The position numbers and the translations under genes were made by a program. DNA of 64,000 nucleotides from Alphaproteobacteria bacterium. Lineage in GTDB: Bacteria; Pseudomonadota; Alphaproteobacteria; SP197. A model generated the notes under the pieces. That model was not told the DNA's origin. It worked only from the letters and a program-made list of their open reading frames with translations, and did not search any database. The stretch's first letter is position 1. Each line of letters starts with the position of its first letter. Below, one piece after another: positions 49,752-63,530 of this stretch. The stretch is from assembly GCA_965228895.1 (NCBI GenBank), contig OZ245842.1, positions 832,001 through 896,000 on the forward strand, in the 5' to 3' direction.

Positions 49752-50495
49752 ATGAAGCTAAGAGGGGTCCTTGCATTTCTGTGCATCACACTGGCTGCGT
49801 GCGAGGCGGTACCAAACACGGGTTTAAATGGTGCGAGTTGGGCCTCGGTGAGTTCAACAAATGACCCGGGCGTGTATCGGGACTTCGACACCCAAGCGGT
49901 TTTTGATGGGACGGACCAGGTTGGGGAGGCAATGTTCCGAAGCACTCATCCCGGCGCGAGCGATGGAGGGCTAGGGACAACAGACTGGGTCTATGTTCGT
50001 ACGGTAGAGCTTGATTACGCTGCAATTGTTTCCGGCGCGTACAACCTATCGCCAGAAATAGTCAGGTTCTTTCGGGAGTGCGCACCGGCCCTCGATCCGA
50101 CCAATCCTGAGGATCAGTTCCGTTCAGGCCGTCTGGGCGACACGCCTGATGCACGTCTGGTTTTGACGCGTGTCACTTGGCGCACCGAAATCGGACCAGG
50201 GCCGCAGATCTACTCGACGGCTCGTGTGGCCGATGCAAATCTACAGGTATTCGGTGCCAGCGCTAAGCTGCAGCGTCCCCTGTCTCTCAGCGTGCTGCTC
50301 TCAGTTGAGCCGGGTCGGAGCTTTGAGCCAGCATCTCCGATTATTAATCGGACTGTCAGCAACATCCGCACCGGAGACGTCACAGCAAACTGCACGGACC
50401 AAACCCTCGAGACGGCGCACATCGCAATTGGAGAGTCCGGCTGGTTCCCCGGAGGGGATGTTTACAACATCGTTGTGGAGATCATCGAGGAATGA
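49752..50495 (+). CDS. Hypothetical lipoprotein
   Basis: SD GGAGG; MKLR + hydrophobic core + lipobox LAAC. Confidence 0.75.
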   Translation: MKLRGVLAFLCITLAACEAVPNTGLNGASWASVSSTNDPGVYRDFDTQAVFDGTDQVGEAMFRSTHPGASDGGLGTTDWVYVRTVELDYAAIVSGAYNLSPEIVRFFRECAPALDPTNPEDQFRSGRLGDTPDARLVLTRVTWRTEIGPGPQIYSTARVADANLQVFGASAKLQRPLSLSVLLSVEPGRSFEPASPIINRTVSNIRTGDVTANCTDQTLETAHIAIGESGWFPGGDVYNIVVEIIEE

Positions 50496-50821
50496 GTTTT
50501 GCGACGTCGTCACAGCAGCCCGGTTCCCCCTTGAACTTCCGTGTCCGCGTTAGCAAGGCAAAGGGCGACAAGGCCCTTTGGGGTGGCGCAGGCATAGATA
50601 ATCCTCTAACTGGCACAGATGCCTACATTTTGGTTCGCGTGGATGAGCGGGGAGAGCCGATCGAGCTTTTCAAGCAGCCTACGCGCGGTTCACCACCGAA
50701 GCTAGTAGCAAAACTTGAGCCTGGCGAGACTTTCCTCGTGGCAATCGACAAGGCCGTTGCCATCACGGCACGCTGCGCGAAAGACACTTTCGTGGACTGT
50801 GCTTTCGTAGCTAAGGGTTGA
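50492..50821 (+). CDS. Small beta-rich hypothetical protein
   Basis: ATGA overlap with the lipoprotein gene; 109 aa. Confidence 0.65.
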   Translation: MSFATSSQQPGSPLNFRVRVSKAKGDKALWGGAGIDNPLTGTDAYILVRVDERGEPIELFKQPTRGSPPKLVAKLEPGETFLVAIDKAVAITARCAKDTFVDCAFVAKG

Positions 50822-50830
50822 GAGGAACAA

Positions 50831-52216
50831 ATGACGATTCAGGCAAAGGTCCGCACTCTGCGTGCTCGCGCAAGCCAATCCGCGGATCTGAGTTTCAACA
50901 TGGCGGGCGTTATCGCAGCGCGGAACTATGATTTCGCGACAGACAATGGAACGGCTCATCTTGGTAAGGTGGCGCTCCGGTTCGACATTAAGACAAACTT
51001 GTACGATCACTTGGGGGAAACAGAACCTGGGTCCGGACCGATCATCGCAAATTCGCGACTGAAGTATGGTGCAGGGTCGATTGCGCAACTCTTCATATCG
51101 CCGAAAGGGTCTAATCCAGCACCGTACCTGTTTGAACTGCGGAACGAAACGCTTGGAGCTGCCCTCGATCAGGCAATCTCCAAACGAGAGAACGCCTATT
51201 TGGAGAGGTACAGACATGTAGCGCAAATTGCGGCTAGGCTGCGGCACAGCTACCCTGAGATCACGAAACATTTGACTAACCTCGTCGCTAACACGCAGGC
51301 GCGGTTTGACGCACTCGACGCAGAGTACGCAACTGATGGGATTGCAGTACGAAAGGCGACAGTCAGCGAGCAGTCTGTGAGTGCTGACTATGCGGTTCAA
51401 ACAGAAAACGTGACCAAGTCAACGACATTGGCGACCTGGAACTCAACCATGCCGAATGGCAATCCTTCCGGCGACGCAATGATTACTGAAATCAAGGATC
51501 CGGATGGCAAGGTGCTTCAGAAGCACGAGACGCCAAATGCCGGCAGTCTCCCTCGGATTCTGAACGCTGCAGGGCAATGGGAGTTAGTAAGTACTCCGGA
51601 CTTCACCAGCCAGAAGGTCGAGGCAAAAACCACCTCAGATGGGAAGCAAATCACCGAGACATTCGATGCGCGATACGCCCACCCGCGATTGGAAAATGAA
51701 ATTGAGTATCGCCAGGCCAGTCAAGCGCTCCATAGTGAACTGATCAAACAGGAACTCGCCACTCATAGATTGCCGCATCTAGAGCGGATCATGGAGAATG
51801 AGCTGAAGGCGATAGATCTCGAGATTCGGTCCCTTCAGTTGAACTTCGCTCACACCTACCTAACTGCTCCGTTCGACGGAGTGGTAACAGCCCTTTACAA
51901 AGATATCGGAGAGAGCGTGGAGGCCGGTGAACCAATACTTCGTCTCGAGAACGACACTGTGCTTCTAATTGTTGGCCAGGTGCAGGCCGTAGGCTCTGTT
52001 CGACTTGGTGCCCAAGTGACAATTACATTCGACCTGGATGACACTGGCGCAATGAAGCAATTGCCTGGCCACATCGTTTCGGTTCGCGGCCATGAGGCCG
52101 ACAACGACGAGTGGGACCTGATAATACAAGCTGATAACCCTGCTGACGGTGGGGGACGGCTGGTGCCCCTCAACTATCAGTTCGATCCTGATTCCTCGGT
52201 TGTGGTCATCATGTAA
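50831..52216 (+). CDS. Atypical HlyD/membrane-fusion (periplasmic adaptor)-like protein
   Basis: ADLSFNMAGVI and LTAPFDGVVTALYKDIGESVEAGEPILRL lipoyl-like halves, coiled coil, C-terminal beta-barrel-like region; SD GAGGA. Confidence 0.7.
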   Translation: MTIQAKVRTLRARASQSADLSFNMAGVIAARNYDFATDNGTAHLGKVALRFDIKTNLYDHLGETEPGSGPIIANSRLKYGAGSIAQLFISPKGSNPAPYLFELRNETLGAALDQAISKRENAYLERYRHVAQIAARLRHSYPEITKHLTNLVANTQARFDALDAEYATDGIAVRKATVSEQSVSADYAVQTENVTKSTTLATWNSTMPNGNPSGDAMITEIKDPDGKVLQKHETPNAGSLPRILNAAGQWELVSTPDFTSQKVEAKTTSDGKQITETFDARYAHPRLENEIEYRQASQALHSELIKQELATHRLPHLERIMENELKAIDLEIRSLQLNFAHTYLTAPFDGVVTALYKDIGESVEAGEPILRLENDTVLLIVGQVQAVGSVRLGAQVTITFDLDDTGAMKQLPGHIVSVRGHEADNDEWDLIIQADNPADGGGRLVPLNYQFDPDSSVVVIM

Positions 52217-52899
52217 TGTCAGTACCGCGTCCAAACCCCCCACGTTTGTGGGGGAGTAACCCCACTGAATTGGAGGAATCGCGCGGTGTCACAAACTTGA
52301 GGTTAACTTGGGACCGCGTCGCAGGGGCTTCAGGTTACGACTTGAGAATTGATGGCGGGACTATAATGCCGGTGCAGCCTGACGTAACACCAGGCGGGTT
52401 CGGTCCCAATACCCTTCACAGCTTTGAAGTGCGAGCTAAAGTCGGAACCGACGTCTCTCTGTGGTCAGGGGCATTCGAAACGGTGACACGCCCGCCAACT
52501 CCAACTCTGCCCAAACAAGATGCGGCAAGTGTGAGTATCTGGGGTGTGGCCCTTTTGTGGAATGAAAGCGCGAGCCTTCCCGGTGCATACATTGATGTTT
52601 GGCGAAGGTTGGGAGGCGTCGAAAACAGGCTCAACGAAGGCCAGCCATTACCACTTCTTGGCGGTTGGCTCGATGAAACAGACCCCTCGATGTCCGATAA
52701 GGCATTCTGGTTGCAGTTGGTCGTGCCGGCTTTATCGGTTCCGGGTGACCGGCTACCTGGCGATAACGTCTCATTTTTTGGCCCTGAGATCCAATTGAGT
52801 GGGCCGGTTGTTCGCCGCGCGGTAATCCCTCCGCGCAGTGTTCGGTCTTCCGATCAATTATGGCATCGACAGTACGGTCGTGCAGGACGGCTGTTGTGA
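52216..52899 (+). CDS. Fibronectin type III-like domain protein
   Basis: LTWDRVAGASGYDL...PNT.HSFEVRA...SLWS; TAATG overlap. Confidence 0.65.
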   Translation: MSVPRPNPPRLWGSNPTELEESRGVTNLRLTWDRVAGASGYDLRIDGGTIMPVQPDVTPGGFGPNTLHSFEVRAKVGTDVSLWSGAFETVTRPPTPTLPKQDAASVSIWGVALLWNESASLPGAYIDVWRRLGGVENRLNEGQPLPLLGGWLDETDPSMSDKAFWLQLVVPALSVPGDRLPGDNVSFFGPEIQLSGPVVRRAVIPPRSVRSSDQLWHRQYGRAGRLL

Positions 52900-54365
52900 T
52901 CGCCGGCTTGCCAGAGCGAGCTCTTTGGGAAAGAGCCGGAGAGCAAAGTTCACGAGAGCGCACTGTACGAGAAAGGCGAGCCGTCGAAATCTGGGGTCGC
53001 CGACATTCGAAGCCGAGTGTATTTGATGATCGTCCCGAACGTGCCCGGCCTGGGACAGAAGGATGGCGAATGGTCTCTACCTCAGCCGCTCAGGCAAATA
53101 CGACCACGGGCTCAACAACGTTCAGGTCGCCGCCCTATAGCGAGGCATGGGAACCGCGAGGCGAGAAAGCACGAATGTCGGGCGGAGTGTTTCCGTCTCC
53201 GCCCTGGGCTGGCGGAGGTGTCGAGCCCCCCTCGTCTCGCGAAGTTCCCGAAGTGAGGCGCGAAGGGCCAGTATTCGGTCGAAGGGGAAACATATTCGGA
53301 AACTACTTTGGTTGGGGTGAGGCCCTGGACGATCCGCTAAGTCCGGCAAGCCCGGTTGACTTGGTCGCTTGGTATCATGACCAAGAGTATGGAGCAATCC
53401 AACGGAAGTACGGAGCAAGCTCTGATCCTGTTGAGGCATACTTTGAGCCTTTCACACGTTTTGATCGTCCGGAGTTCATGTATGACTTGGCGATGGCAGA
53501 CCTTCGATTCAATGAGAACTCTTGGAGTTTTATTGGTCAAGCCATGGATCAAGGCTTCTATCGCGGCGCCGCTGAATTGTTGGCTGCCGACATAGTAATG
53601 TCTTCTCTCGCTTGGGTGTTTCACACTGCGCTCGCGGGCGTGAGACTTGCAGTCTACGGGACGCAGGTTGTCTTTGGTGGACTTTACAAAGTGTTCGCTG
53701 GAGAGATGTCGATCGGTAATTACTTAGTGAGCATAATGGAGGGAGGGGCAAAAATACTTGCCGCAGTAGGATACTTCATCGCCGGCACGGTTCGCGGAGT
53801 ATGGAACTTCGGTGCGGCGACGTTGCGTGGGATAGCGCGAGACCCTGTGCGGGGCTTATCGGGTGTTGCGCTCGGTGCGGCCGCCGGTAGCGTGTTCGGT
53901 CCAATAGGAACTGTTGTCGGAGGTATCATCGGGGGAGCGATTGGTGGCGGTGGCGGATGCTTTATCACGACTGCTGTGTGTGAGGCACATGGTTTGCCCG
54001 ATGAGCACGAGTTGCTTGTAGAGTTACGTCGATTCCGTGACGGCTACATGTCCCGAGATCCCTCGGCGCGGAGTCTGGTCGAGGCCTATTACCGTGTATC
54101 ACCGCTGATCGTTGCTGAATTCGCTCTAAGGCCAGACAAAGACGACATCTACCGCGAGCTGTTTGCACGTTATCTGGTTCCTGCGTTCAATATGGTCCGT
54201 CGAGGTCGTTATAGAGCAGCGCTAAGTGTGTATCGCGCAATGTTGCTTCGCGCAGCTTCGAAGGCAGGGCTGCGTCATGAGTTAGACCGTTTCCCGGCCA
54301 TTGATCGCTATCGATCCTTGCCGGATTGGGATCCTTCGACGACGGGAATTCTGACAGCTACGTAG
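52896..54365 (+). CDS. Phospholipase A2-motif protein with hydrophobic/glycine-zipper region and CFI-box C-terminal domain
   Basis: YFGWG, DLVAWYHDQEY, ADLRF; GxxxG zipper; GGGGCFITTA...LRRFRD...YYRVSP; GTGA overlap. Confidence 0.7.
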   Translation: MIAGLPERALWERAGEQSSRERTVRERRAVEIWGRRHSKPSVFDDRPERARPGTEGWRMVSTSAAQANTTTGSTTFRSPPYSEAWEPRGEKARMSGGVFPSPPWAGGGVEPPSSREVPEVRREGPVFGRRGNIFGNYFGWGEALDDPLSPASPVDLVAWYHDQEYGAIQRKYGASSDPVEAYFEPFTRFDRPEFMYDLAMADLRFNENSWSFIGQAMDQGFYRGAAELLAADIVMSSLAWVFHTALAGVRLAVYGTQVVFGGLYKVFAGEMSIGNYLVSIMEGGAKILAAVGYFIAGTVRGVWNFGAATLRGIARDPVRGLSGVALGAAAGSVFGPIGTVVGGIIGGAIGGGGGCFITTAVCEAHGLPDEHELLVELRRFRDGYMSRDPSARSLVEAYYRVSPLIVAEFALRPDKDDIYRELFARYLVPAFNMVRRGRYRAALSVYRAMLLRAASKAGLRHELDRFPAIDRYRSLPDWDPSTTGILTAT

Positions 54366-54892: not shown

Positions 54893-54921
54893 TTGACAAG
54901 ATTAGCAGCGCTAAGTACAAC
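54893..54921 (+). promoter_or_regulatory. Sigma70-like promoter with a palindrome in the spacer
   Basis: TTGACA-17 bp-TACAAC; TTAGC-agc-GCTAA at 54902-54914. Confidence 0.5.
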
Positions 54922-54928
54922 AAGCACT

Positions 54929-55288
54929 ATGACAGAATCTACTGAAAAACTCGGTACGTTTCTGGCGTCGACGCGCAACAAGCTCGGACTCACATTGAGG
55001 ACTGTTGAAAAGCAGGTTGGGATTTCCAACGCGTATCTGAGCCAGTTGGAGCACGGAAAAATCAAGATGCCCGCTCCGCAGAACCTGCACAAGCTAGCCC
55101 AATTGTATCGGTTGCCCTACGAGCTCTTGATGGAGCTGGCCGGGTATCCGGTACCAAGGCCGAAAGCGGGGAGCGCAAGACAAAAGCTGGATTCATTATC
55201 GGCGAGAATTGGATCGGTGAGCAAAGAGGAGGAAGAGGCGCTTGTAGAATATCTGCAGTTCATCCGGTCAAGAAAGCGGAGGCGATAG
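54929..55288 (+). CDS. XRE-family HTH transcriptional regulator
   Basis: R.KLGLTLRTVEKQVGISNAYLSQLEHGK...P. Confidence 0.9.
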   Translation: MTESTEKLGTFLASTRNKLGLTLRTVEKQVGISNAYLSQLEHGKIKMPAPQNLHKLAQLYRLPYELLMELAGYPVPRPKAGSARQKLDSLSARIGSVSKEEEEALVEYLQFIRSRKRRR

Positions 55289-56230
55289 ATGCGATGGTCG
55301 TACTCCGCAAGCCGTTCATTTCGTCAATGCCAGCGTCAGTGGTACTTCAAGAACATCGTGGCCAGCGCGAAGGCGAAAGACCCGCTACGAAAACGCGCCT
55401 ATCTTCTGAGCAAGCTGCAAAGCGTGAGTGCTTGGCGGGGCCGGATTGTGGATGACGTCATATCAAACGTCATTGTTCCCTGCATTAACCGAAACACCTG
55501 CATAACGCTAAAACAGGCCAAGGAGCGTGCCCGGAATCTGTTTGAAAGGCAACTCGCCTTTGGGCGGCGCCATCCAATTGACGACCTGAACCTTCGCGTG
55601 TCTGAGCAGGGGGAAGATTTCGCCGCCTTCCACGCCATGGAGTACAATCGCGGACTTTCACAAACAGAGATAGACCGGGCATGGTCCGAGATTGAAACCG
55701 CGTTGGAAAACCTCTTTAGGCTGCATGATCTCAAGCGCATCATGAAGTCTTCCGACTACATTGTAACGCAGCGAGCACTCCAGTTCCCGCTCATGGACGG
55801 AATAACCGTTCTTGCCTATCCTGATGCCATAGCTTTTCAATCTGGCTCGTCGCCAATCCTCATTGATTGGAAGGTTCACGTCTTTGGGAAGAATGACGCT
55901 TGGCTGCAGCTAGCGATCTATGCGATAGCGCTGCAACGGTGCAAGCCCCATGCGGATTTTCCGGCGCTGCCGGAAGCCCCTCTTCAGGACATAAAACTCT
56001 ACGAGGTACAACTCCTAACAAACGTTGTGCGCGAACACGCTCTTGATGCCGATCAGTTTATTGAGGCTGAGGAGTACATGATCGCGTCTGCATACGAGAT
56101 GACGTGTCTTACGGAAGGAGAGAAGTACGCCAGGCTGGACATGGAAGACTTTACGCCAGCCTTGCATGCGCAAACATGCCAGCGCTGTGCGTTTCGGAAA
56201 TTGTGCTGGAAGGATGAGCATGTCCATTGA
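55289..56230 (+). CDS. Cas4/AddB-like PD-(D/E)xK nuclease
   Basis: WSYS......C, YPDAI, IDWK, QLAIY, C-terminal CQRCAFRKLC (1+3 Cys). Confidence 0.85.
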   Translation: MRWSYSASRSFRQCQRQWYFKNIVASAKAKDPLRKRAYLLSKLQSVSAWRGRIVDDVISNVIVPCINRNTCITLKQAKERARNLFERQLAFGRRHPIDDLNLRVSEQGEDFAAFHAMEYNRGLSQTEIDRAWSEIETALENLFRLHDLKRIMKSSDYIVTQRALQFPLMDGITVLAYPDAIAFQSGSSPILIDWKVHVFGKNDAWLQLAIYAIALQRCKPHADFPALPEAPLQDIKLYEVQLLTNVVREHALDADQFIEAEEYMIASAYEMTCLTEGEKYARLDMEDFTPALHAQTCQRCAFRKLCWKDEHVH

Positions 56231-58592
56231 ATCGAACTGTTTTCGCATTAACGGGCTGGGCAATCTTCGTGCCGAGTACCGGCTGTTTCAAATCGCGGGA
56301 TTGCAGCGGGAAACGCCCGAATACTATGCGAATGTCCAGCGCATTGTTCGTCAATTGAGCTACCAGATGAAAGCGCCGGTGACGACTTACGACCTAGATC
56401 GGCAAACGTCTCTGGTTGTGCCCAAAGGTTTCGGCGATCCGCCGGATCATGTGACGCTGGTAGGTGCAGTGGCTGCCCTGAAGGACACCGGTGAGGCGAT
56501 TGAACTAAACTTTAAAAGGCCCTGCGCTGAGCTGGATCCCGTCAGGCTGCGGTTTCTGCAGTTTGTGTTTCAAGACCCGCTTTGGAACAACCCGCAGCTA
56601 TGGCAACCGAGCGCTGGCAAGCCGTTCTTTTTCAAGAAGCCGGCAAAGCAACTCGGAAAGCTCGATTTGTATGAAGGCTTCACCATAAGGGTGACGCCGC
56701 ATCCGGAAGGCGGCTTTGGGATCACGCTCGATTTGCGCAGGAAGTTGGTATCAAGATCGGCGCTTCCGGCAAACATGTCGCGGGAACAGGCCAACAAATT
56801 CAAGGGAAGGTCCTGCCTCTATAAAATGGGTCATGTCTGGTACGAAGTGAGCATTGCCGGGCTTGCGGACCTGAATATTGGGGAGCCGTCGATTCCGTTA
56901 AGCGGAAAGGCGGTGAGCTTGGTTGACTATCTTCACAGCAAGTCGCCAAAACCCGTTCCGTCCTCGATCGCCAACCTGTCTCCTGACGGCGCTGCAATCT
57001 ACTACAGGACCACCGGTCCGGATCAGAAGGCTGCACCGGCGCAGCTCTGTTATCTGGTGGAAGACACGCACGACCGGGAAGGAGCGCGGCATCAACCGGA
57101 AACCGTAATCGGGCCGTTTGATCGTCATCGGCAAATCGGCAGCATTGTTCGGCGCTTTCTCTCAAGTGTTTATGTTGGCGGCGCGAATTTGTCGGTTTCG
57201 GAGACTCCCGCGCGCATACGAACCAAACCGTTCGAAGTGCCAAGTTTGCTGTTGGGCAACAACACCGTGCTCTCGCTCGATAAGTCTGATCGCGGGATCG
57301 TGGCCGCGATAAAGGATTATGCACGAAGCCGACTGAATCTGCTGGATGATGAAGCCGCCGGGTTCTACGAGCGGAGCCTTCTGGACCGGCAGTACATCAT
57401 CTTGCCAAAAAGCATCGCGAACAGCAGCGGACAGCAGTTCCTCACTGAGCTCATGGCGCGCGTGGACGCGCTTTATCCCGTCGGAGGGGATTACCAACCC
57501 GAGTTGATTGTCTATGACGATCTCAGCCAAAGTAGGGACTTTGTAGGTCAGTCGCGAGCGATAAAGGAGGCCATTGAAGCCTCCGGGGTAAAGCCCGGAT
57601 ATGCGCTTATCATGGTGCACCGTTACGACCGCCGCGCCAGATCGGCAGACCAATTGGCCGCCTGGGTTGTCAAGGAGTTTGCACGGCAGTTTGAAGTTAA
57701 GGCATCCGTGGTTCACACCGACGTTATCAGGAAGTCCTACACGGGCGTGACCCGCGATGGTGAAACCAAATACGTCGTCAAAGCAGGTCAGCAGAAGCGG
57801 TTGTCAGGTTATCTGCGCAATGTTGCTCTCAACAAAGTGCTCCTTGCGAATGGGAAATGGCCGTTCGTGTTGAACTCATCTCTTCACGCGGATGTGGTGA
57901 TAGGGATTGATGTAAAGAACAGCACCGCTGCTTTCACGCTCATCGCGAATGGCGGAAGGATCATCCGGTTTTCTACAAGCCCGTCTAAGCAAAAAGAACA
58001 ATTGCTGAAAAATCAGGTTGCAAAGTTTGTAGGCGAACTCATTCGCAAGGAATCTTCGTATTTCGACAAGCCGCCTAAAGAGATTGTCATACATCGGGAC
58101 GGACGAGCTTGGAGATCGGAGATCGCCGGGCTGCACGAATCCTGCAGGAGCCTTGCTAGAGATGGATATCTGGATGCGGGTTGGCGGCTCACGGTGCTCG
58201 AGATTGCGAAAACCGCTCCGGCTCCGTTGCGGCTTTTCAATGTCAAGCCATCAAACAGAGGCGCCGGACTCTATGTTGAGAATCCGCTGGTGGGCAGCTG
58301 GGCAGAGATGTCCGAAGATGAAGGATTTGTATGCACGACGGGCAAGCCTTTCAGAATTCCTGGTACGGCAAACCCTTTGCACGTGCGGCGTGTCGCCGGA
58401 ACGATGCCGATGGAAAAGTGCCTGTCGGACGTGTTTTCCCTGAGCTGTTTGACATGGACACGCCCTGAAGGGGCCATACGCCTTCCAATCTCAATAAAAC
58501 TCTGTGACCGGAGCTTGTTTGACGAGGCCGCCGAATATGACGAGGACGCCATTAAGTTTGACAATGACAATTTGGCCGGGGCGATGAAATGA
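56220..58592 (+). CDS. ago: Long prokaryotic Argonaute (about 790 aa) with apparent DEDD catalytic tetrad
   Basis: PIWI motifs IGIDV, KEQL, IHRDGR, LEIAK, NPLVG, GTANPL, RLPISIKLCD; length fits N-L1-PAZ-L2-MID-PIWI. Confidence 0.88.
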   Translation: MSIESNCFRINGLGNLRAEYRLFQIAGLQRETPEYYANVQRIVRQLSYQMKAPVTTYDLDRQTSLVVPKGFGDPPDHVTLVGAVAALKDTGEAIELNFKRPCAELDPVRLRFLQFVFQDPLWNNPQLWQPSAGKPFFFKKPAKQLGKLDLYEGFTIRVTPHPEGGFGITLDLRRKLVSRSALPANMSREQANKFKGRSCLYKMGHVWYEVSIAGLADLNIGEPSIPLSGKAVSLVDYLHSKSPKPVPSSIANLSPDGAAIYYRTTGPDQKAAPAQLCYLVEDTHDREGARHQPETVIGPFDRHRQIGSIVRRFLSSVYVGGANLSVSETPARIRTKPFEVPSLLLGNNTVLSLDKSDRGIVAAIKDYARSRLNLLDDEAAGFYERSLLDRQYIILPKSIANSSGQQFLTELMARVDALYPVGGDYQPELIVYDDLSQSRDFVGQSRAIKEAIEASGVKPGYALIMVHRYDRRARSADQLAAWVVKEFARQFEVKASVVHTDVIRKSYTGVTRDGETKYVVKAGQQKRLSGYLRNVALNKVLLANGKWPFVLNSSLHADVVIGIDVKNSTAAFTLIANGGRIIRFSTSPSKQKEQLLKNQVAKFVGELIRKESSYFDKPPKEIVIHRDGRAWRSEIAGLHESCRSLARDGYLDAGWRLTVLEIAKTAPAPLRLFNVKPSNRGAGLYVENPLVGSWAEMSEDEGFVCTTGKPFRIPGTANPLHVRRVAGTMPMEKCLSDVFSLSCLTWTRPEGAIRLPISIKLCDRSLFDEAAEYDEDAIKFDNDNLAGAMK

Positions 58593-58957
58593 GCGATTTG
58601 AGCTTGTTGAGCGGGGTTTATGCGAATGTCGAGGAGTACGCGACCCTCGTTGATCGCGTTATTGAGCTCTTGAGGACAGCAGGCTCTGATCCGCGTAATC
58701 AGGATCAGAGCAAGCTCGCTCAGCTTCTCATCGACGCGGGCGACCAAGGGCTTACGTCGCAATCATATGAAGCATTGATGCTGGATAGCCTGCTGCGCTC
58801 AAGCACAGGCGAACCAGTGCTCAATCTTAAGCTTCTCGGCGAGCGTCTCCAAAGCCGCGAGGTTGATGCGATCTATCAAAAACAGCTTGAGATGCTCGCA
58901 TCGGAGTTGGAAGCGGAACGAGCAGAGGTGGCAAGCCGCCTCCGGGGACGTAAGTGA
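58589..58957 (+). CDS. Small Leu-rich helical hypothetical protein
   Basis: ATGA overlap with ago; 122 aa. Confidence 0.75.
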   Translation: MSDLSLLSGVYANVEEYATLVDRVIELLRTAGSDPRNQDQSKLAQLLIDAGDQGLTSQSYEALMLDSLLRSSTGEPVLNLKLLGERLQSREVDAIYQKQLEMLASELEAERAEVASRLRGRK

Positions 58958-60105
58958 TTGAAACCTACCTCATTGGCTCGATCAACCAGTCTTTGGAGAG
59001 AATACGCCAGCTCCGTCAAATCATTCAGGGACAATACCCGCGCGAATATGACGGGTTGCGGCAGGTCTGCTTAACCCGGCTTGACGCGGCGCAGGCCGAT
59101 CTCAAACGGCTGGCGCAGGAACCGGTGGTGGACAAGGGATTGCAAACGCCGCGCCGGATAAGAGAGTTCAAACGCGTGGTTGAACACCTTAACGCAGTTG
59201 AAGGCGTCGGCGTGTTTGCGCTCAAGAGGACGAGCGCCGAAGATCATGTTCTGAATTTCTTGATTACCGAACTGTGCCAAGAAATTCGGTACCCGCTTGT
59301 TCCCCCGGTGATTAGTCAGATGTCGCAAGATTATTTTCACATCTATCCGGAGTTCAATTTATTGTGCGTTCCCCTCATCGAAGGGCGCTTTCTTTTGCAC
59401 TTGCCGGATATCTATCACGAACTTTGCCATCCCTTTCATCGTGCGCAGCATACGGACTTGCCGACGCTCGAAGCCTATCACGCCTGTTTCAAGAACAGCC
59501 TGTTTGCGATGGTGGAGCACTTCCAGATTGAAGCCGTCGCGGCAGACCGTCTGCGCAAGCCCGAAGGTAAGCGTTTTCAGATACAACTCTGGAAAACTTG
59601 CTGGGTGAAATACTGGATGGAGGAATTGTACTGCGATCTGTTCGGGGTGCTGACTGCGGGGCCGGCCTTTGTCTGGTCGCACTATCATCTCTGCATCAAG
59701 CGGGGCGGCAATCCGTTTGAAACGCCTCTGACGTTCGCGGCAACACACCCTGCGGACGATGCGCGCATGAAAGCTATGCTGAAGATGCTGGCCCAGATGG
59801 ATGGGTATGACCCTGAAGCAGGGTCGATCAGGGATGCCTGGAGCGATTTTCTTCAGACAATGAGCTTCAGGCAAGAGCCGGAGTACCGGCAATGCTATTC
59901 CGATGATCTGCTTTCCGTCATTGTGAAGGAAGCCAAGAGCGGCGTGGAGAAGGTCGGCATTGAGACGGCCGGAAAAGACTCTCCGACCATGATCGTAAGC
60001 CTGCTCAATGATGCGTGGCGGGAGTTCTGGAAAAATCCGCAACGCTATCAGTCCTGGGAAGGTCAGAAGTTGGCCTGCCTGCAAAAGAGCATCGCCAAAA
60101 CCTGA
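58954..60105 (+). CDS. Putative HExxH zinc metallopeptidase (M48/Lit-like motif order)
   Basis: HELCH, EELYCDLFG, THPADDAR; GTGA overlap. Confidence 0.7.
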   Translation: MIETYLIGSINQSLERIRQLRQIIQGQYPREYDGLRQVCLTRLDAAQADLKRLAQEPVVDKGLQTPRRIREFKRVVEHLNAVEGVGVFALKRTSAEDHVLNFLITELCQEIRYPLVPPVISQMSQDYFHIYPEFNLLCVPLIEGRFLLHLPDIYHELCHPFHRAQHTDLPTLEAYHACFKNSLFAMVEHFQIEAVAADRLRKPEGKRFQIQLWKTCWVKYWMEELYCDLFGVLTAGPAFVWSHYHLCIKRGGNPFETPLTFAATHPADDARMKAMLKMLAQMDGYDPEAGSIRDAWSDFLQTMSFRQEPEYRQCYSDDLLSVIVKEAKSGVEKVGIETAGKDSPTMIVSLLNDAWREFWKNPQRYQSWEGQKLACLQKSIAKT

Positions 60106-60195: not shown

Positions 60196-60228
60196 GCGGG
60201 TGAGGTCTTGTTTTTTGACCTCATCCGC
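60196..60228 (+). terminator. Hairpin downstream of the Argonaute operon
   Basis: GCGGGTGAGGTC-ttgtttttt-GACCTCATCCGC inverted repeat; no clear downstream U tract. Confidence 0.5.
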
Positions 60229-60266: not shown

Positions 60267-60595
60267 TAGAGCGCTTTCCGATCAGTCGCGGTCATATCCT
60301 TGCACTCCTAGAGCGTGAAAGTGTCGATGGTTCGGGCGATGGCGTCCGAGAGATCATCGACGGTGCGTGCGGCGAGCTTCTATAGGAAGGCCCTGAACTT
60401 AGCGAAGGCAAGTTCGGTAGGATTGAAGTTGGGGCTGTAGGACGGCAGAGAGCGCAACTCGGCGCCGGCCGCCTCGATGGCCTGCCGGACGGCGGCCGGC
60501 TTGTGCGCCGGCAGGTTGTCCATGACGACGATGTGCCCCGGTGACAGTGTCGGCACCAGCACTTGCTCGACCTAGGCGAGGAACGCCTGGCCCCG
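60267..60595 (-). mobile_element. IS630-family transposase remnant
   Basis: [25 protein letters not shown] motifs with in-frame stops; ends in ...GGAAAGCGCTCTA. Confidence 0.85.
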
Positions 60596-60807
60596 CATTG
60601 TGCTGGGAATAAGTCACCACGGTCAATAACTTAGCCGACTGCTTTGACGACTAACGATGTAAATGATGATGTAGTGATAATGGTTTTGCGACTCTGGATG
60701 ACCACAGCCAATCATAAGTTCCAGCTCCCAGGTTCTAGTGGGAGGCGCGCAAACCAACTACCGATATTGGCCTTGAAAGTGGCGGTGTGACGATCCATGG
60801 GGCATCC

Positions 60808-61731
60808 TCACATCCGCTTGACGCTGCCGTCACCTGCGACGCAGATTACCGGCTCGACGAGTTCATACTCAGTCGCGTTTCGCTCAAAAGTCCCGATTCT
60901 TTCCTGTGAAAGTTCAAAGCTCATCAAATGCATGTCGGTCGTTTGATGATTGCCTTCGGCGGAGAACCCTGCATCAACGGCGATACCGCCACGTTCGGTG
61001 AGCAGATAGCGGGCATGGAAGTCCGCGCCGCCATTCTTCTGTCGCCAGCAGAAAATCGAGACACTAAGGCCGGCGGGAACGACACCGGGGAAAAGATTGT
61101 TGGCTTCCCGCTCCAGGTCTTCGTTCGTCGTCTTGTTGTCGTGATAGCGATAATGGATTTCGCAGATAGCATCCGGATTTTCGCCGCCGATGATGTTCAG
61201 ACACTCCCGCAACGTGTTCTTGTAGCGCTGGTTGAAGGGATCAAAGAACGGATCAACAAACAGGATGTGTGAGGCAGACCGGAGCATTTCCTTCATCGCT
61301 GCGGCGAGCGAAGGCGCGTCGCGTGTGATCGCACAATCATGTGGCACAGCCATGAGCGGGTGAAGCTCATCGAGGTCTTCGGCCAGTAAAACGGTATCGC
61401 TGCCGTCCGGATTCTGAGCCGCGATGATGGCCCGAAACGGATCGCGTTGTTGCTCAGTCAATGCGTTGTACAGCCAGTCGCCGGCGTCACGGTCATACGG
61501 ACGGCGCCTGCGCACCACCTTGTTCTTCCTTGCCAGATTAAGCGCTTCTTCGATGCGCTTTTTCTGGACCGGCGGCAAGCCGGCGGTCGCATCGTAAACT
61601 TCGCGGAACCATTTCTTCGGGAACTCAGATATCAGCCGGCCTTTATCGAAACCGAATTTCTCGATGACATACCGAAAGGTAGCCCAACTTGATCCAATCG
61701 CCTGCGGCTCTACCGCGTACTCGTAAAGCAT
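60808..61731 (-). CDS. Hypothetical protein coupled to the ATPase (C-terminal DP../H.R PLD-like motifs)
   Basis: TGATG overlap with the ATPase; FVDPFF and FHARYLLT..GG...D.GF. Confidence 0.7.
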   Translation of the reverse strand: MLYEYAVEPQAIGSSWATFRYVIEKFGFDKGRLISEFPKKWFREVYDATAGLPPVQKKRIEEALNLARKNKVVRRRRPYDRDAGDWLYNALTEQQRDPFRAIIAAQNPDGSDTVLLAEDLDELHPLMAVPHDCAITRDAPSLAAAMKEMLRSASHILFVDPFFDPFNQRYKNTLRECLNIIGGENPDAICEIHYRYHDNKTTNEDLEREANNLFPGVVPAGLSVSIFCWRQKNGGADFHARYLLTERGGIAVDAGFSAEGNHQTTDMHLMSFELSQERIGTFERNATEYELVEPVICVAGDGSVKRM

Positions 61732-63530
61732 CAGAAAAGCTCCCCGGCACGCTCCTCGAAGAAGCCATGAGGCCACTGGTCGCGGAATTCTCCGTGTTCA
61801 TCGATGCCAAGGCCGCGAAATTGCACGCCGTCAGGACCGCCCTCGACATAGATCACCGAGAGGTCGTCGGCGGTCAGGCCGTGTACGCCCGGCGGCAGCT
61901 CTTTCTCTGTCGTCTCCCTGATGCGCCGCAAGAGCCGCAGCATGATGTGCTCGCTGTGTGTCTCGACCAGCAGGCTGCGCTCAGGACCGACGGCGGGCTG
62001 CATTAAGGTAGTGGCTTCGATAAAAAGATCGCCGAGCCCGACCTGGATAGCGGGATGAATATGAAGCTCGGGCTGTTCGATAGCGATAAGGCCGTCGGGG
62101 TCCATCAGGCAAGCGACCACGACCGGGATCATTTGGGAAATGCCGACGCCGACATCGCCCGGCGCTACCACCAGACCTTTTTCAAGATCGAGCAGACCGA
62201 AATCCGTTACGGTATTCAATGATCCATAGAGCTCTTGAAGCTCGCCGAGATCATCATCGTCAATGCCCCGTTGGAATAGCTGATGAAAACGGCTCGTGTT
62301 AGGGATTTGCTTAAAGACAGTATTCTGCAGTTGATAGCCGGTGTGCAGTTTCATCTCTGATGATAGCCATTCATTCACCTGGTCCAAGAGCGCATCAGAT
62401 ATCTGCGTGTGAAGAACATCCCATGCCGCCAGGCCCTGCGCCCACCGTGATTCATCAGGAGACAGACGTGGCCTGTATCCTCGTGTCGGGATTTCCCGCA
62501 GCGGCCCGATATAGGTGAGCGCCTTGAGGTAGTCCCGCACGATGCGAACCGGCCCAAGCACGATTTCATCGAGCAGGGTGCTCAGACCAGCCCGGCGAGA
62601 GCTTTCTAATTCATATTCATCAGCGGCCCGCCACTCATCATTCTCGGACACCCGCAACACCGCAGCGCCGCGCGCATAGCGCATGCGTATTAGATTCTTG
62701 TCGGGTTCAACCAGATCGAGAACGAGCGGACGGTCGAGATCAGGTAAAGCCCCAAAATCGGTATCAACCTTGGCGCGGAAGCGAACACGCTCGTTGACCT
62801 GCCTGTCCGCAACGATCTGCCGGGATAGCTCATAGAGCTCATTGCCCAGCGGGGTTTTGAACGGATCGCCGTGTTCGTCGTCCTCTTCGGTCTCAACCAT
62901 GACCGGAGGGCTTTCCAGCACTTCAAAGGTATCGTCATCGGGATCGATAAGCTCTTGCAACAGGCGATGTTCCCAGTTGATCCCAGTCAGCTCAGTGAGT
63001 CCTTCCTGCGGCGGTGATCGGAGCTCGGCAAGCCTCTCGCCGTCCAATTCGATCGCTACGTTCGATACGTAAGGACCCTGGATGAGATCGCTCCAGGACA
63101 CCTCGATGCCAACACCAACGTCCTGCACGACGGCGTATTCTTTGAGCTCAGTATTTTCGCCGGCCAGATAGCGGACACGCAGATTGTTGAACTGCGTATC
63201 GAGCAAGTTGCCGCCCGAGTTCAGCGGCAGCCGTTCGTTGCCTTGGTCGTCCGTCAGGTCGATCCGAACCATGATGCGGATTACCCTGCCCAGCTCATGA
63301 CTATGAACGAGGCTCGCAAAGCCGCCTAAATCGATGAGTCCGCCGGCGATCGTTTGATCGGGGTCAGGATTTTGACGTTCAAGAATTTCGCGTAAGTAAT
63401 GCAGGGCCTGAAGGACTGTGCTCTTGCCGGCGCTGTTCGGGCCGAAAAGCAGAGTGATCGGTTTGAGGTCGATCGACTGTGTTTCGCCGATGCCTTTGAA
63501 GTTTTCGATTTCGATCTGGCGTAAGCGCAT
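61731..63530 (-). CDS. ABC-type (AAA_15/AAA_21-like) ATPase with DUF3696 C-terminus
   Basis: IENFKG, Walker A GPNSAGKS, GVGISQ, IEQPELHIHP, ETHSEH, WPHGFF. Confidence 0.88.
   Translation of the reverse strand: MRLRQIEIENFKGIGETQSIDLKPITLLFGPNSAGKSTVLQALHYLREILERQNPDPDQTIAGGLIDLGGFASLVHSHELGRVIRIMVRIDLTDDQGNERLPLNSGGNLLDTQFNNLRVRYLAGENTELKEYAVVQDVGVGIEVSWSDLIQGPYVSNVAIELDGERLAELRSPPQEGLTELTGINWEHRLLQELIDPDDDTFEVLESPPVMVETEEDDEHGDPFKTPLGNELYELSRQIVADRQVNERVRFRAKVDTDFGALPDLDRPLVLDLVEPDKNLIRMRYARGAAVLRVSENDEWRAADEYELESSRRAGLSTLLDEIVLGPVRIVRDYLKALTYIGPLREIPTRGYRPRLSPDESRWAQGLAAWDVLHTQISDALLDQVNEWLSSEMKLHTGYQLQNTVFKQIPNTSRFHQLFQRGIDDDDLGELQELYGSLNTVTDFGLLDLEKGLVVAPGDVGVGISQMIPVVVACLMDPDGLIAIEQPELHIHPAIQVGLGDLFIEATTLMQPAVGPERSLLVETHSEHIMLRLLRRIRETTEKELPPGVHGLTADDLSVIYVEGGPDGVQFRGLGIDEHGEFRDQWPHGFFEERAGELF

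Follow-up and report, generated by a model that had tools for sequence, protein, structure and literature searches.

A five-gene Argonaute cassette in which a small protein and a predicted zinc metallopeptidase are co-inherited parts

A prokaryotic Argonaute (pAgo) encoded in an alphaproteobacterial genome is followed, without a gap, by the genes of a small protein and a predicted peptidase, and the locus raises the question of whether these two genes belong to the Argonaute system and, if they do, what they might contribute to it. The locus lies on the + strand at positions 54929–60105 of a stretch of 64 000 nucleotides (contig OZ245842.1, assembly GCA_965228895.1), which is called the window below. 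Its five open reading frames (ORFs) encode, in order, an XRE-family helix-turn-helix (HTH) regulator, a Cas4-like nuclease, a long pAgo, a protein without known family (Small) and a protein with an HExxH motif (the HExxH protein). They are tightly coupled and have the same layout as in an earlier reading of the bare sequence, the first-pass annotation, whose coordinates, junctions and hairpin 3' of the last gene were all reproduced. The stop codon of the XRE gene is followed directly by the start of the nuclease gene (TAG then ATG, 0 bp), the nuclease and pAgo genes overlap by 11 bp, and the pAgo/Small and Small/HExxH junctions are ATGA and GTGA, respectively.

The first-pass annotation had made linkage of the last two genes to pAgo in other genomes the test of their membership, and homologous loci were collected from both ends of the cassette. 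A search seeded with the HExxH protein, limited to one genome per species, gave 56 loci, which were annotated by tblastn, ORF maps and hidden Markov models (HMMs); five with <3 kb of upstream DNA and four with a weak or partial HExxH match were set aside. Among the remaining 47 loci (confident match, at least 3 kb upstream) a pAgo gene was found in 39, upstream and in one open frame in 34 of them and interrupted or frameshifted in five (L001, L005, L018, L021 and L026). Two more loci hold only a pAgo remnant (L003 and L012) and six have no pAgo (L009, L011, L013, L020, L039 and L052). The order HTH–nuclease–pAgo–Small–HExxH and the gene sizes are kept at HExxH identities of 21–25% (L034–L053). 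In the reverse search pAgo was the seed; metagenome contigs yielded 79 loci, duplicates among them, and each gene was counted over the loci with enough flanking DNA. The HExxH gene was present in 46/49, Small in 52/58, the nuclease gene in all 56 and the XRE gene in 50/52. Loci that depart from the full set are L101, L138/L139 (truncated pAgo), L127–129 (a gap that may hold a divergent small ORF), L146 (Small not found) and L100 and L117 (without XRE). The linkage is therefore strict in the sense that the first-pass annotation intended.

Co-divergence of the proteins was also analysed. Over 31 intact loci the pairwise identities of four cassette proteins are strongly correlated (r = 0.94–0.99); for pAgo against the HExxH protein r = 0.986, a value reached in 0 of 999 permutations. 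This correlation is one of co-inheritance as a unit; kinship alone can yield it, and it is no proof of interaction. The characterised RslAgo (WP_013921749.1) provides a further case: its gene lies on a conjugative Runella plasmid, flanked by HTH and PD-(D/E)XK genes and by two 'hypothetical' genes of 125 and 378 amino acids, which are homologues of the window's Small and HExxH protein, so that the window and the RslAgo locus agree in all five genes. Dozens of unrelated genomes share this gene order, which puts the arrangement far beyond what chance would give, and the earlier claim that the genes form one conserved unit stands. On this comparative evidence Small and the HExxH gene are integral, co-inherited parts of the cassette.

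The cassette is sparsely distributed. Its pAgo (PADLOC PDLC02382) occurs in 1 of 401 sampled genomes of its phylum (G000 only), the HExxH gene was found in 0 of 25 relatives, two of the same genus included, and the latter gene is present on five plasmid records. It is well supported that the cassette is an accessory, horizontally acquired defence unit. In otherwise intact cassettes at L001, L005, L007 and L022, insertions of ∼0.9–1.6 kb interrupt the nuclease, pAgo or HExxH gene. At other loci the XRE, Small and HExxH genes are intact despite deletion of the nuclease and pAgo genes at different junctions: L003 and L012 (Latescibacterota), L011/L020 (Gemmatimonadota) and L013 (Caldilineaceae). 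These deletions either fuse the first 17–92 nuclease codons to the 3' end of the pAgo gene or drop both genes whole. A stand-alone XRE–Small–HExxH triad was found at L039.

The regulator gene (54929–55288, +; 119 amino acids) encodes a protein that matches HTH_19, HTH_31 and HTH_3 of Pfam (3.5e-11 to 2.2e-10) and, in PADLOC, HTH_VI (4.4e-9) and capH (2.6e-6, over profile positions 5–91 of 103); homologues from distant cassettes match capH at 4.6e-11 and 1.9e-10. Its layout in the alignment is CapH-like: the HTH is N-terminal, and a linker joins it to a C-terminal helix that is acidic/amphipathic and conserved. Its nearest PDB entry is an immunity repressor (8bny, 1.2e-4). The promoter/operator (54893–54928, +) consists of TTGACA (54893–54898), a TTAGCA box (54902–54907) and a −10-like TACAAC (54916–54921). 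Its layout, GCTTGACA-N3-TTAGCA...TTAGCA-ATG, is conserved in loci of several phyla. TTGACA-N3-TTAGCA is present in 33 of the 91 loci with an XRE gene and upstream DNA, mainly in closer relatives, and occurs once in the organism's own 5.5-Mb genome, at the XRE promoter (0 matches for a control pattern); a generic promoter scan did not list this promoter. The XRE start was placed at ATG 54929 because the same ATG stands directly 3' of the conserved promoter in 23 related loci. The nuclease and pAgo genes each have a GGAGG-type ribosome site in front of the start codon; the XRE gene has none. Since the promoter is conserved across phyla and unique in the genome, these observations fit a leaderless or near-leaderless XRE transcript and a regulator that would be a dedicated autoregulator.

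The second gene (55289–56230, +; 313 amino acids) had been called Cas4-like from its sequence, and profile searches agree: its product matches PADLOC Aga_Cas4-like_Nuc (PDLC02406) over its full length at 4.5e-124 and Pfam PDDEXK_1 at 1.2e-10. An alignment of 10 cassette nucleases shows C14, D179, D193-W-K195, Q207, C297, C300 and C306 to be invariant. The protein carries, in all 10 sequences, the ACE signature of D...DxK plus one N-terminal and three C-terminal cysteines (the Fe-S 'iron staple') that is described in the available text of PMC12094033. Its length equals the mean reported there for ACE2, and the ACE2 likeness of this pAgo-associated Cas4-family PD-(D/E)XK nuclease rests on that length together with the PADLOC match. 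No PDB sequence matched it at E <= 1. The APACE systems (ACE1/ACE2; Bobadilla Ugarte et al. 2025, PMC12094033) share with the window an active long-A pAgo and a Cas4-family nuclease with D...DxK and 1+3 cysteines. Unlike the window cassette, the characterised APACE1 is cyanobacterial, has two genes and cuts DNA, and the descriptions of APACE in the accessible part of that paper are without XRE, small protein or peptidase; APACE2 is explicitly uncharacterised there. The cyanobacterial Cas4–pAgo systems mentioned in the first-pass annotation, the ACE1 systems, are by the same account a different clade.

The third gene (56220–58592, +) encodes a long pAgo of 790 amino acids. Its start was set at ATG 56220 and not at the first ATG (56166) because the alignment with PliAgo starts at 56220. 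In a phmmer search against PDB, residues 1–786 align with residues 1–785 of 7r8f at E 1.5e-208 (7r8k and 7r8h were also matched). We take these entries, which their depositors name only 'Argonaute', to be PliAgo, in view of the match of residues. The protein also matches PADLOC pAgo_II (PDLC02382; 1043.7 bits) and Pfam Piwi (6.1e-9), and is 33% identical to RslAgo over 793 columns. The D-E-D-D residues that had been picked out by eye (in GID, KEQ, RDG and LCD) are D564, E593, D627 and D763, and they align with the catalytic D563, E592, D626 and D762 of PliAgo (numbering of PMC9360449). D564, D627 and D763 are invariant and E593 is nearly invariant in 12 cassette pAgos, and all four, together with K566, are invariant in the five closer ones. 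A long-B pAgo (BPAN), which would have an inactive PIWI domain and depend on an effector nuclease, was considered on account of the PADLOC label 'Class II' and ruled out by the intact tetrad. Membership in the PliAgo/RslAgo group (long-A clade, N-PAZ-MID-PIWI), that is, the D-R class, is well supported by these alignments, as is a catalytically intact site.

To our knowledge, no nucleases other than D-R pAgos turn DNA guides exclusively on RNA, and the class is under development as a source of RNA tools. A shifted cleavage site and a cation-independent MID pocket are among the other biochemical traits of the group. PliAgo, RslAgo, PnyAgo and HpeAgo take DNA guides and cut RNA, not DNA, in vitro, and a pAgo of the PliAgo group is a multi-turnover slicer in vitro that needs no effector (PMC9360449). 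The same paper divides the class into a first group with an HTH regulator and a second with a sigma-70 factor, and gives its natural function as unknown. The likely target of the window's pAgo is RNA. DNA interference, which the first-pass annotation had proposed, is unlikely and probably wrong because the protein falls in the PliAgo group, whose members are guided by DNA to RNA targets in vitro and do not cut DNA (PMC9360449).

How much of this cassette is already known can be stated gene by gene. The first three, a regulator, a nuclease and a pAgo of this class, were already on record (Lisitskaya et al. 2022, PMC9360449): the PliAgo and RslAgo D-R operons of that study have the same full-length pAgo match with the DEDD residues and K566, the same preceding PD-(D/E)XK nuclease, a distant Cas4 relative, and the HTH regulator. 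Apart from nuclease, regulator and sigma factor, its main text names no partner gene and no peptidase; the two downstream genes may be drawn unlabelled in its figures or supplements. The first-pass annotation knew of no system joining an active long pAgo and a Cas4-like nuclease to a metallopeptidase, a small helical partner and a repressor. One part of this combination is not new: XRE, nuclease and pAgo were described as a conserved operon in 2022 (PMC9360449; PADLOC pAgo_II with Aga_Cas4-like_Nuc), and the last two genes are undescribed. No PADLOC, Pfam or NCBIfam model covers these two. Ryazansky 2018 and Bobadilla Ugarte 2025, in the portions available, make no mention of them, and a 2025 preprint on protease-effector modules contains no Argonaute or metallopeptidase outside its references. 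Among the papers listed by targeted literature searches for pAgo with a peptidase or metalloprotease none was relevant, and judged by title and abstract only PMC9360449 seemed to deal with this operon; figures, supplements and most subscription journals lay beyond the scope of these searches. What is new is Small and the HExxH protein as fixed parts of the cassette.

Small (58589–58957, +; 122 amino acids) is recognised by its conserved termini, an N-terminal MSDLSLL and a C-terminal tail of RLRGR type, and by its position, which is between pAgo and the HExxH gene throughout. No match was found in Pfam, PADLOC, NCBIfam or PHROGs, and its family comprises 244 proteins, none of them named.

The HExxH protein (58954–60105, +; 383 amino acids) is a predicted cytoplasmic zinc metallopeptidase with a motif signature of M48/U49 type. 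A helical N-terminal region of ∼100 amino acids is followed by H155-E156-x-x-H159 (HELCH), E224-x3-D228 and H265-P266-x4-R271. Neither a set of 26 sequences nor one of 48 shows any variation in these motifs; in the set of 48, which spans 23–59% identity, the invariant residues are E83, H155, E156, H159, W217, E224, D228, G236, H265, P266, R271, W296 and W355. HExxH is present in 228 of 228 full-length relatives, of which 226 also fit H-E-x-x-H-x(30,140)-H-P-x(4)-R. According to the available text of PMC7950410, this last pattern selects the M48 enzymes and Lit (U49) in Escherichia coli; the zinc ligands of BepA are H136, H140 and E201, plus H246 of an 'active-site plug'; and HPX4R, the motif of the plug, is a conserved feature of PF01435, the plug histidine being a fourth, inhibitory zinc ligand. 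The window protein fits the M48/Lit rule exactly, with E224 between H159 and H265. The protein is predicted to be latent because the plug histidine motif HPx4R is present. No transmembrane segment was found, nor any hydrophobic one that would suggest a membrane anchor.

Profile comparisons gave weak but concordant signals. In hhalign comparisons with 28 M48 domains, E224xxxD falls on the M48 E-x-x-A-D and THPxDxxRM on THPxxxxR at a probability of 4.3%; with 22 M78 (ImmA/IrrE) domains only a 19-column ligand helix was aligned (68.6%). The protein has no match in Pfam, NCBIfam, PHROGs or PADLOC, and none of 48 diverse members of its family matches a consistent Pfam family. One profile of the family gave 0 PDB matches at E <= 10, and a second matched only coiled-coil noise against the N-terminal 120 residues. 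A search with Peptidase_U49 gave 0 hits in 301 genomes of the organism's own phylum and was uninformative, the control genomes being silent as well. For a 57%-identical homologue (P0108) the Atlas holds a model with a predicted TM-score (pTM) of 0.81. Its named structural neighbours are M48, M48/U49, YgjP/SprT-like, MPTase-PolyVal, DUF6782 and one unrelated dehydrogenase (TM 0.26–0.37 by query and 0.18–0.52 by target, all below the bar for naming), and its nearest named Atlas clusters are Peptidase_U49/M48, with scores of 0.77–0.79. M48 (BepA, HtpX) and Lit (U49, the e14 cell-death peptidase) share with the window protein the pattern H-E-x-x-H-x(30,140)-H-P-x(4)-R, the plug and a glutamate that in the window protein is a candidate zinc ligand, as far as PMC7950410 sets them out in its available text; the window protein differs from both in having no PF01435 or PF10463 match, low hhalign probabilities and an extra helical N-terminal domain of ∼100 amino acids. 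We do not assign it to M48; it is probably a cytoplasmic, latent M48/Lit-like gluzincin outside current family models.

Clustered at 90%, the family counts 405 proteins, and those among the matches listed lack a Pfam domain and are called nothing but 'hypothetical'; clustered at 50%, it has 633 representatives. No relative was found on a viral contig. Some members are fusions. In P0128 and P0142 the HExxH module is followed by a CHAT caspase-like domain at the C terminus (4.3e-9 and 2.4e-4), in which a His/Cys dyad can be seen. Pyrinomonadaceae-type forms (P0143, L028:416-2764, L031:503-2854 and L032:409-2826) carry an extension of ∼400 amino acids with a second HExxH (LHEFLH). Longer fusions with a second HExxH reach ∼780–800 amino acids; five were found, all of a 711–799-amino acid type, and these five have no Pfam domains.

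A second kind of cassette bears on the role of the regulator. PADLOC PDLC02383 was matched in 4 of 351 sampled genomes of one Bacteroidota class, and sigma-type cassettes were examined at L064, L065 and on two plasmids (Spirosoma and Emticicia). Their order is an extracytoplasmic function (ECF)-type sigma factor, a protein of 180–200 amino acids, nuclease, pAgo, a small protein of 128–147 amino acids that is a homologue of Small, and an HExxH homologue of 375–387 amino acids that keeps all motifs. The 180–200-amino acid protein (L064:5350-5946, L065:5445-6053, L202:1482-2027 and L204:1371-1913) is encoded 3' of the sigma gene. When its four sequences were compared by hhalign with 43 XREs, they aligned with XRE residues 6–113, C-terminal helix included (76.7%, E 2.1e-5); an earlier hhalign comparison with two sequences was not significant. 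The protein appears to be a divergent XRE homologue with an N-terminal extension of ∼55–65 amino acids. A replacement of the regulator in the sigma group, considered at first, was set aside once this XRE-like protein had been found there. If the homology holds, an XRE-like protein, nuclease, pAgo, Small and the peptidase would be common to both D-R groups. The XRE-like protein occupies the slot that would be expected of an anti-sigma factor.

What, then, might the peptidase do? The first-pass annotation had proposed a proteolytic output, either abortive infection or derepression, a proposal that is drawn from motifs and can be divided into several more definite readings. The one we favour, tentatively and as somewhat less than an even chance, is that a latent peptidase with a small partner cleaves the XRE-like regulator and thereby derepresses the operon. 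By analogy with ACE1, the Cas4-family nuclease would most likely supply small DNA guides, with which pAgo would slice complementary invader RNA, as its relatives do in vitro. The CapH-like XRE protein would repress the operon from its own near-leaderless promoter, and the peptidase would be kept inactive by its plug, probably together with Small. Infection would switch the peptidase on, and it would cleave the regulator at or near the conserved C-terminal helix; in cassettes of the sister group, cleavage would instead fall on the XRE-like protein encoded behind the sigma factor. The outcome would be derepression of the operon, so that a guide-dependent or stress signal is turned into a transcriptional burst. 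This logic would resemble that of CapH/CapP or BlaR1/BlaI, with a different peptidase family.

For the regulator as target speak its match to capH over nearly the whole profile and the operator conserved across phyla, the presence of an XRE-like protein beside the peptidase in both cassette groups and the survival of XRE–Small–HExxH where the nuclease and pAgo genes have been deleted. CapP, in the available text of 10.1101/2022.04.27.489752, is a latent HExxH peptidase, stimulated by single-stranded DNA, that cleaves CapH between F82 and R83 in the C-terminal helix. CapH/CapP, ImmR/ImmA and DdrO/IrrE share with the window an XRE-type repressor with a C-terminal helix and an HExxH zinc peptidase, predicted to be latent in the window, in one defence operon (same source), and the window peptidase resembles CapP in the helix of its putative third-ligand glutamate (E-x-x-A-[ND]-x-F-A type), to which the 19 aligned columns belong. 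It differs from CapP in having no M78/CapP model match and no detectable GAF domain, in a ligand spacing of 65 residues against 29, and in its M48-type HPx4R plug; unlike capH and capP, the window's repressor and peptidase genes flank a cargo, and an extra small protein is present.

Several points weigh against this reading. The XRE and HExxH genes lie at opposite ends of the operon, 3.7 kb apart, whereas those of CapH and CapP are adjacent. The peptidase matches no CapP, ImmA or IrrE model, its M78 likeness being confined to the short helix, and the M48/Lit assignment fares no better by profile, with 4.3% for M48 and 1.3% for the HExxH family against E. coli Lit in hhalign, and 0/48 diverse members matching Pfam PF01435 (M48) or PF10463 (U49) at E <= 1. 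The XRE-likeness of the sigma-associated protein rests on four sequences. The surviving triads are partly a matter of ascertainment, the HExxH seed being blind to peptidase-less cassettes, and are suggestive only; Small+HExxH pairs without XRE also exist (L009, L052 and L203). Finally, an effector role would account no less well for the fusions to CHAT or a second HExxH domain.

Such an effector is the substance of the next reading, which we consider rather unlikely: the unlocked peptidase would act in abortive infection as Lit does, cleaving an essential host protein so that growth stops, with the XRE protein only setting expression, the phage cue or target-bound pAgo doing the unlocking, and Small serving as adaptor or inhibitor. 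Lit cleaves EF-Tu on a phage cue, and it too is a cytoplasmic peptidase in a defence context. The signature and plug that the window protein shares with Lit, called a prophage cell-death peptidase in the available text of PMC7950410, point this way. So do the Peptidase_U49/M48 Atlas clusters (TM up to 0.52), the CHAT (P0128 and P0142) and second-HExxH fusions, a place at the 3' end of a repressed operon, which would suit a dangerous protein, and lone Small+HExxH pairs in defence-type neighbourhoods (L052); an earlier example of an effector added to a pAgo that is itself catalytically active is found in PMC11442185, as far as its available text goes. Yet the hhalign comparison with Lit itself gave a probability of 1.3%, all named structural neighbours are under the bar, no substrate is named, and the XRE-like protein in both cassette types is left unexplained.

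A direct coupling of the peptidase to pAgo is doubtful, and less probable than a Lit-like effector. Here pAgo, Small and the peptidase would form a complex that target RNA opens, in the manner of Craspase (Cas7-11 with Csx29, Csx30 and RpoE), and the peptidase would cut the XRE-like/anti-sigma protein or Small to set off a transcriptional or dormancy programme; in its substrate this proposal overlaps the favoured cleavage of the regulator. In type III-E systems target RNA activates Csx29, which cuts Csx30, a protein that binds the sigma factor RpoE (PMC9825189, in its available text). The cassettes would share with Craspase an RNA-targeting guided nuclease, a latent protease and small accessory proteins. 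The sigma factor is shared by the sister cassettes only, where an ECF-type sigma factor and an XRE-like protein match the type III-E make-up, and two relatives fuse the module to CHAT. The near-obligate link to pAgo in both directions, the co-inheritance of the genes and the stop/start overlaps of pAgo, Small and HExxH, which suggest stoichiometric co-production, are all consistent with a complex. The window differs in using a DNA guide and an Argonaute, and in having a metallopeptidase and not the caspase-like TPR-CHAT. The triads that persist without pAgo speak against a complex, as does the multi-turnover slicing by relatives that need no effector in vitro (PMC9360449). That invader RNA seen by pAgo would unlock a peptidase held by its plug and by Small, which then cuts a repressor, an anti-sigma or a host protein, is likewise an improbable course of events in our estimation.

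That XRE–Small–HExxH is a self-standing tripartite module (toxin-antitoxin-like or stress-related), which takes up the nuclease–pAgo pair within it or beside it, stabilises the island and has no part in interference, is very unlikely: the triads left intact by independent deletions or found alone (L003, L011, L012, L013, L020 and L039), the accessory nature of the cassette (0/25 relatives, 1/401 genomes) and its occurrence on plasmids would suit such a hitch-hiker, but 46/49 pAgo-seeded loci keep the peptidase and co-divergence extends to ∼24% identity, a linkage unusual for a passenger, and the triads go back, as their deletion junctions show, to ancestors with five genes.

The surroundings of the cassette were also inspected. 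A hairpin with a 12-bp stem and a 9-nt U-rich loop lies at 60196–60228 (+), 91 nt past the HExxH stop; its fold has −25.9 kcal/mol (z = −4.43), with 0 of 200 shuffles as stable. It has no following U-tract, and a consensus terminator scan did not call it. G+C is even over the region (0.52–0.57). Further 3', at 60380–60626 on the − strand, short stop-interrupted ORFs resemble, by eye, a fragment of a DDE/IS630-type transposase; they separate the cassette from a gene pair at 60808–63530 (− strand), in which a 599-amino acid ABC-type ATPase (Pfam AAA_21/AAA_15) overlaps a 322-amino acid partner without family. The ATPase matches NsnB (2.1e-39), PDC-M55A (1.5e-38), HEC-03B and AriA in PADLOC, and the pair looks like a second defence-type unit. 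Upstream, at 49752–54365 (+), are five abutting, co-directional ORFs of 247, 109, 461, 227 and 501 amino acids, of which only the 461-residue one has a family match (HlyD_3, 8.1e-11) and none is in PADLOC. In related loci, genes annotated as encoding a multiubiquitin-domain protein, a ThiF adenylyltransferase and DUF6527 adjoin the cassette on a Runella plasmid (L147:7450-9629), and a multiubiquitin-domain gene adjoins it on the Spirosoma plasmid (L202:1-488), which suggests a ubiquitin-like defence-type neighbour.

For the study of these Argonautes, the immediate consequence is that work on pAgo alone, that on RslAgo included, omits two of the cassette's five genes. The peptidase-like family is itself widespread (the 633 clusters at 50% identity) and undescribed, and may be a new branch of M48/Lit-like enzymes with E156, H265 and E224 as mutational handles. 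A peptidase that served as a regulated output or as a switch would bring proteolytic signalling into Argonaute immunity. Such a role, if real, would explain the regulator or sigma factor of these operons, and would link a programmable DNA guide, through an RNA target, to a protease; were the Craspase-like coupling true, nucleic-acid sensing would be turned into a proteolytic signal, a first for Argonautes. A link between Argonaute immunity and regulated proteolysis is plausible but unproven.

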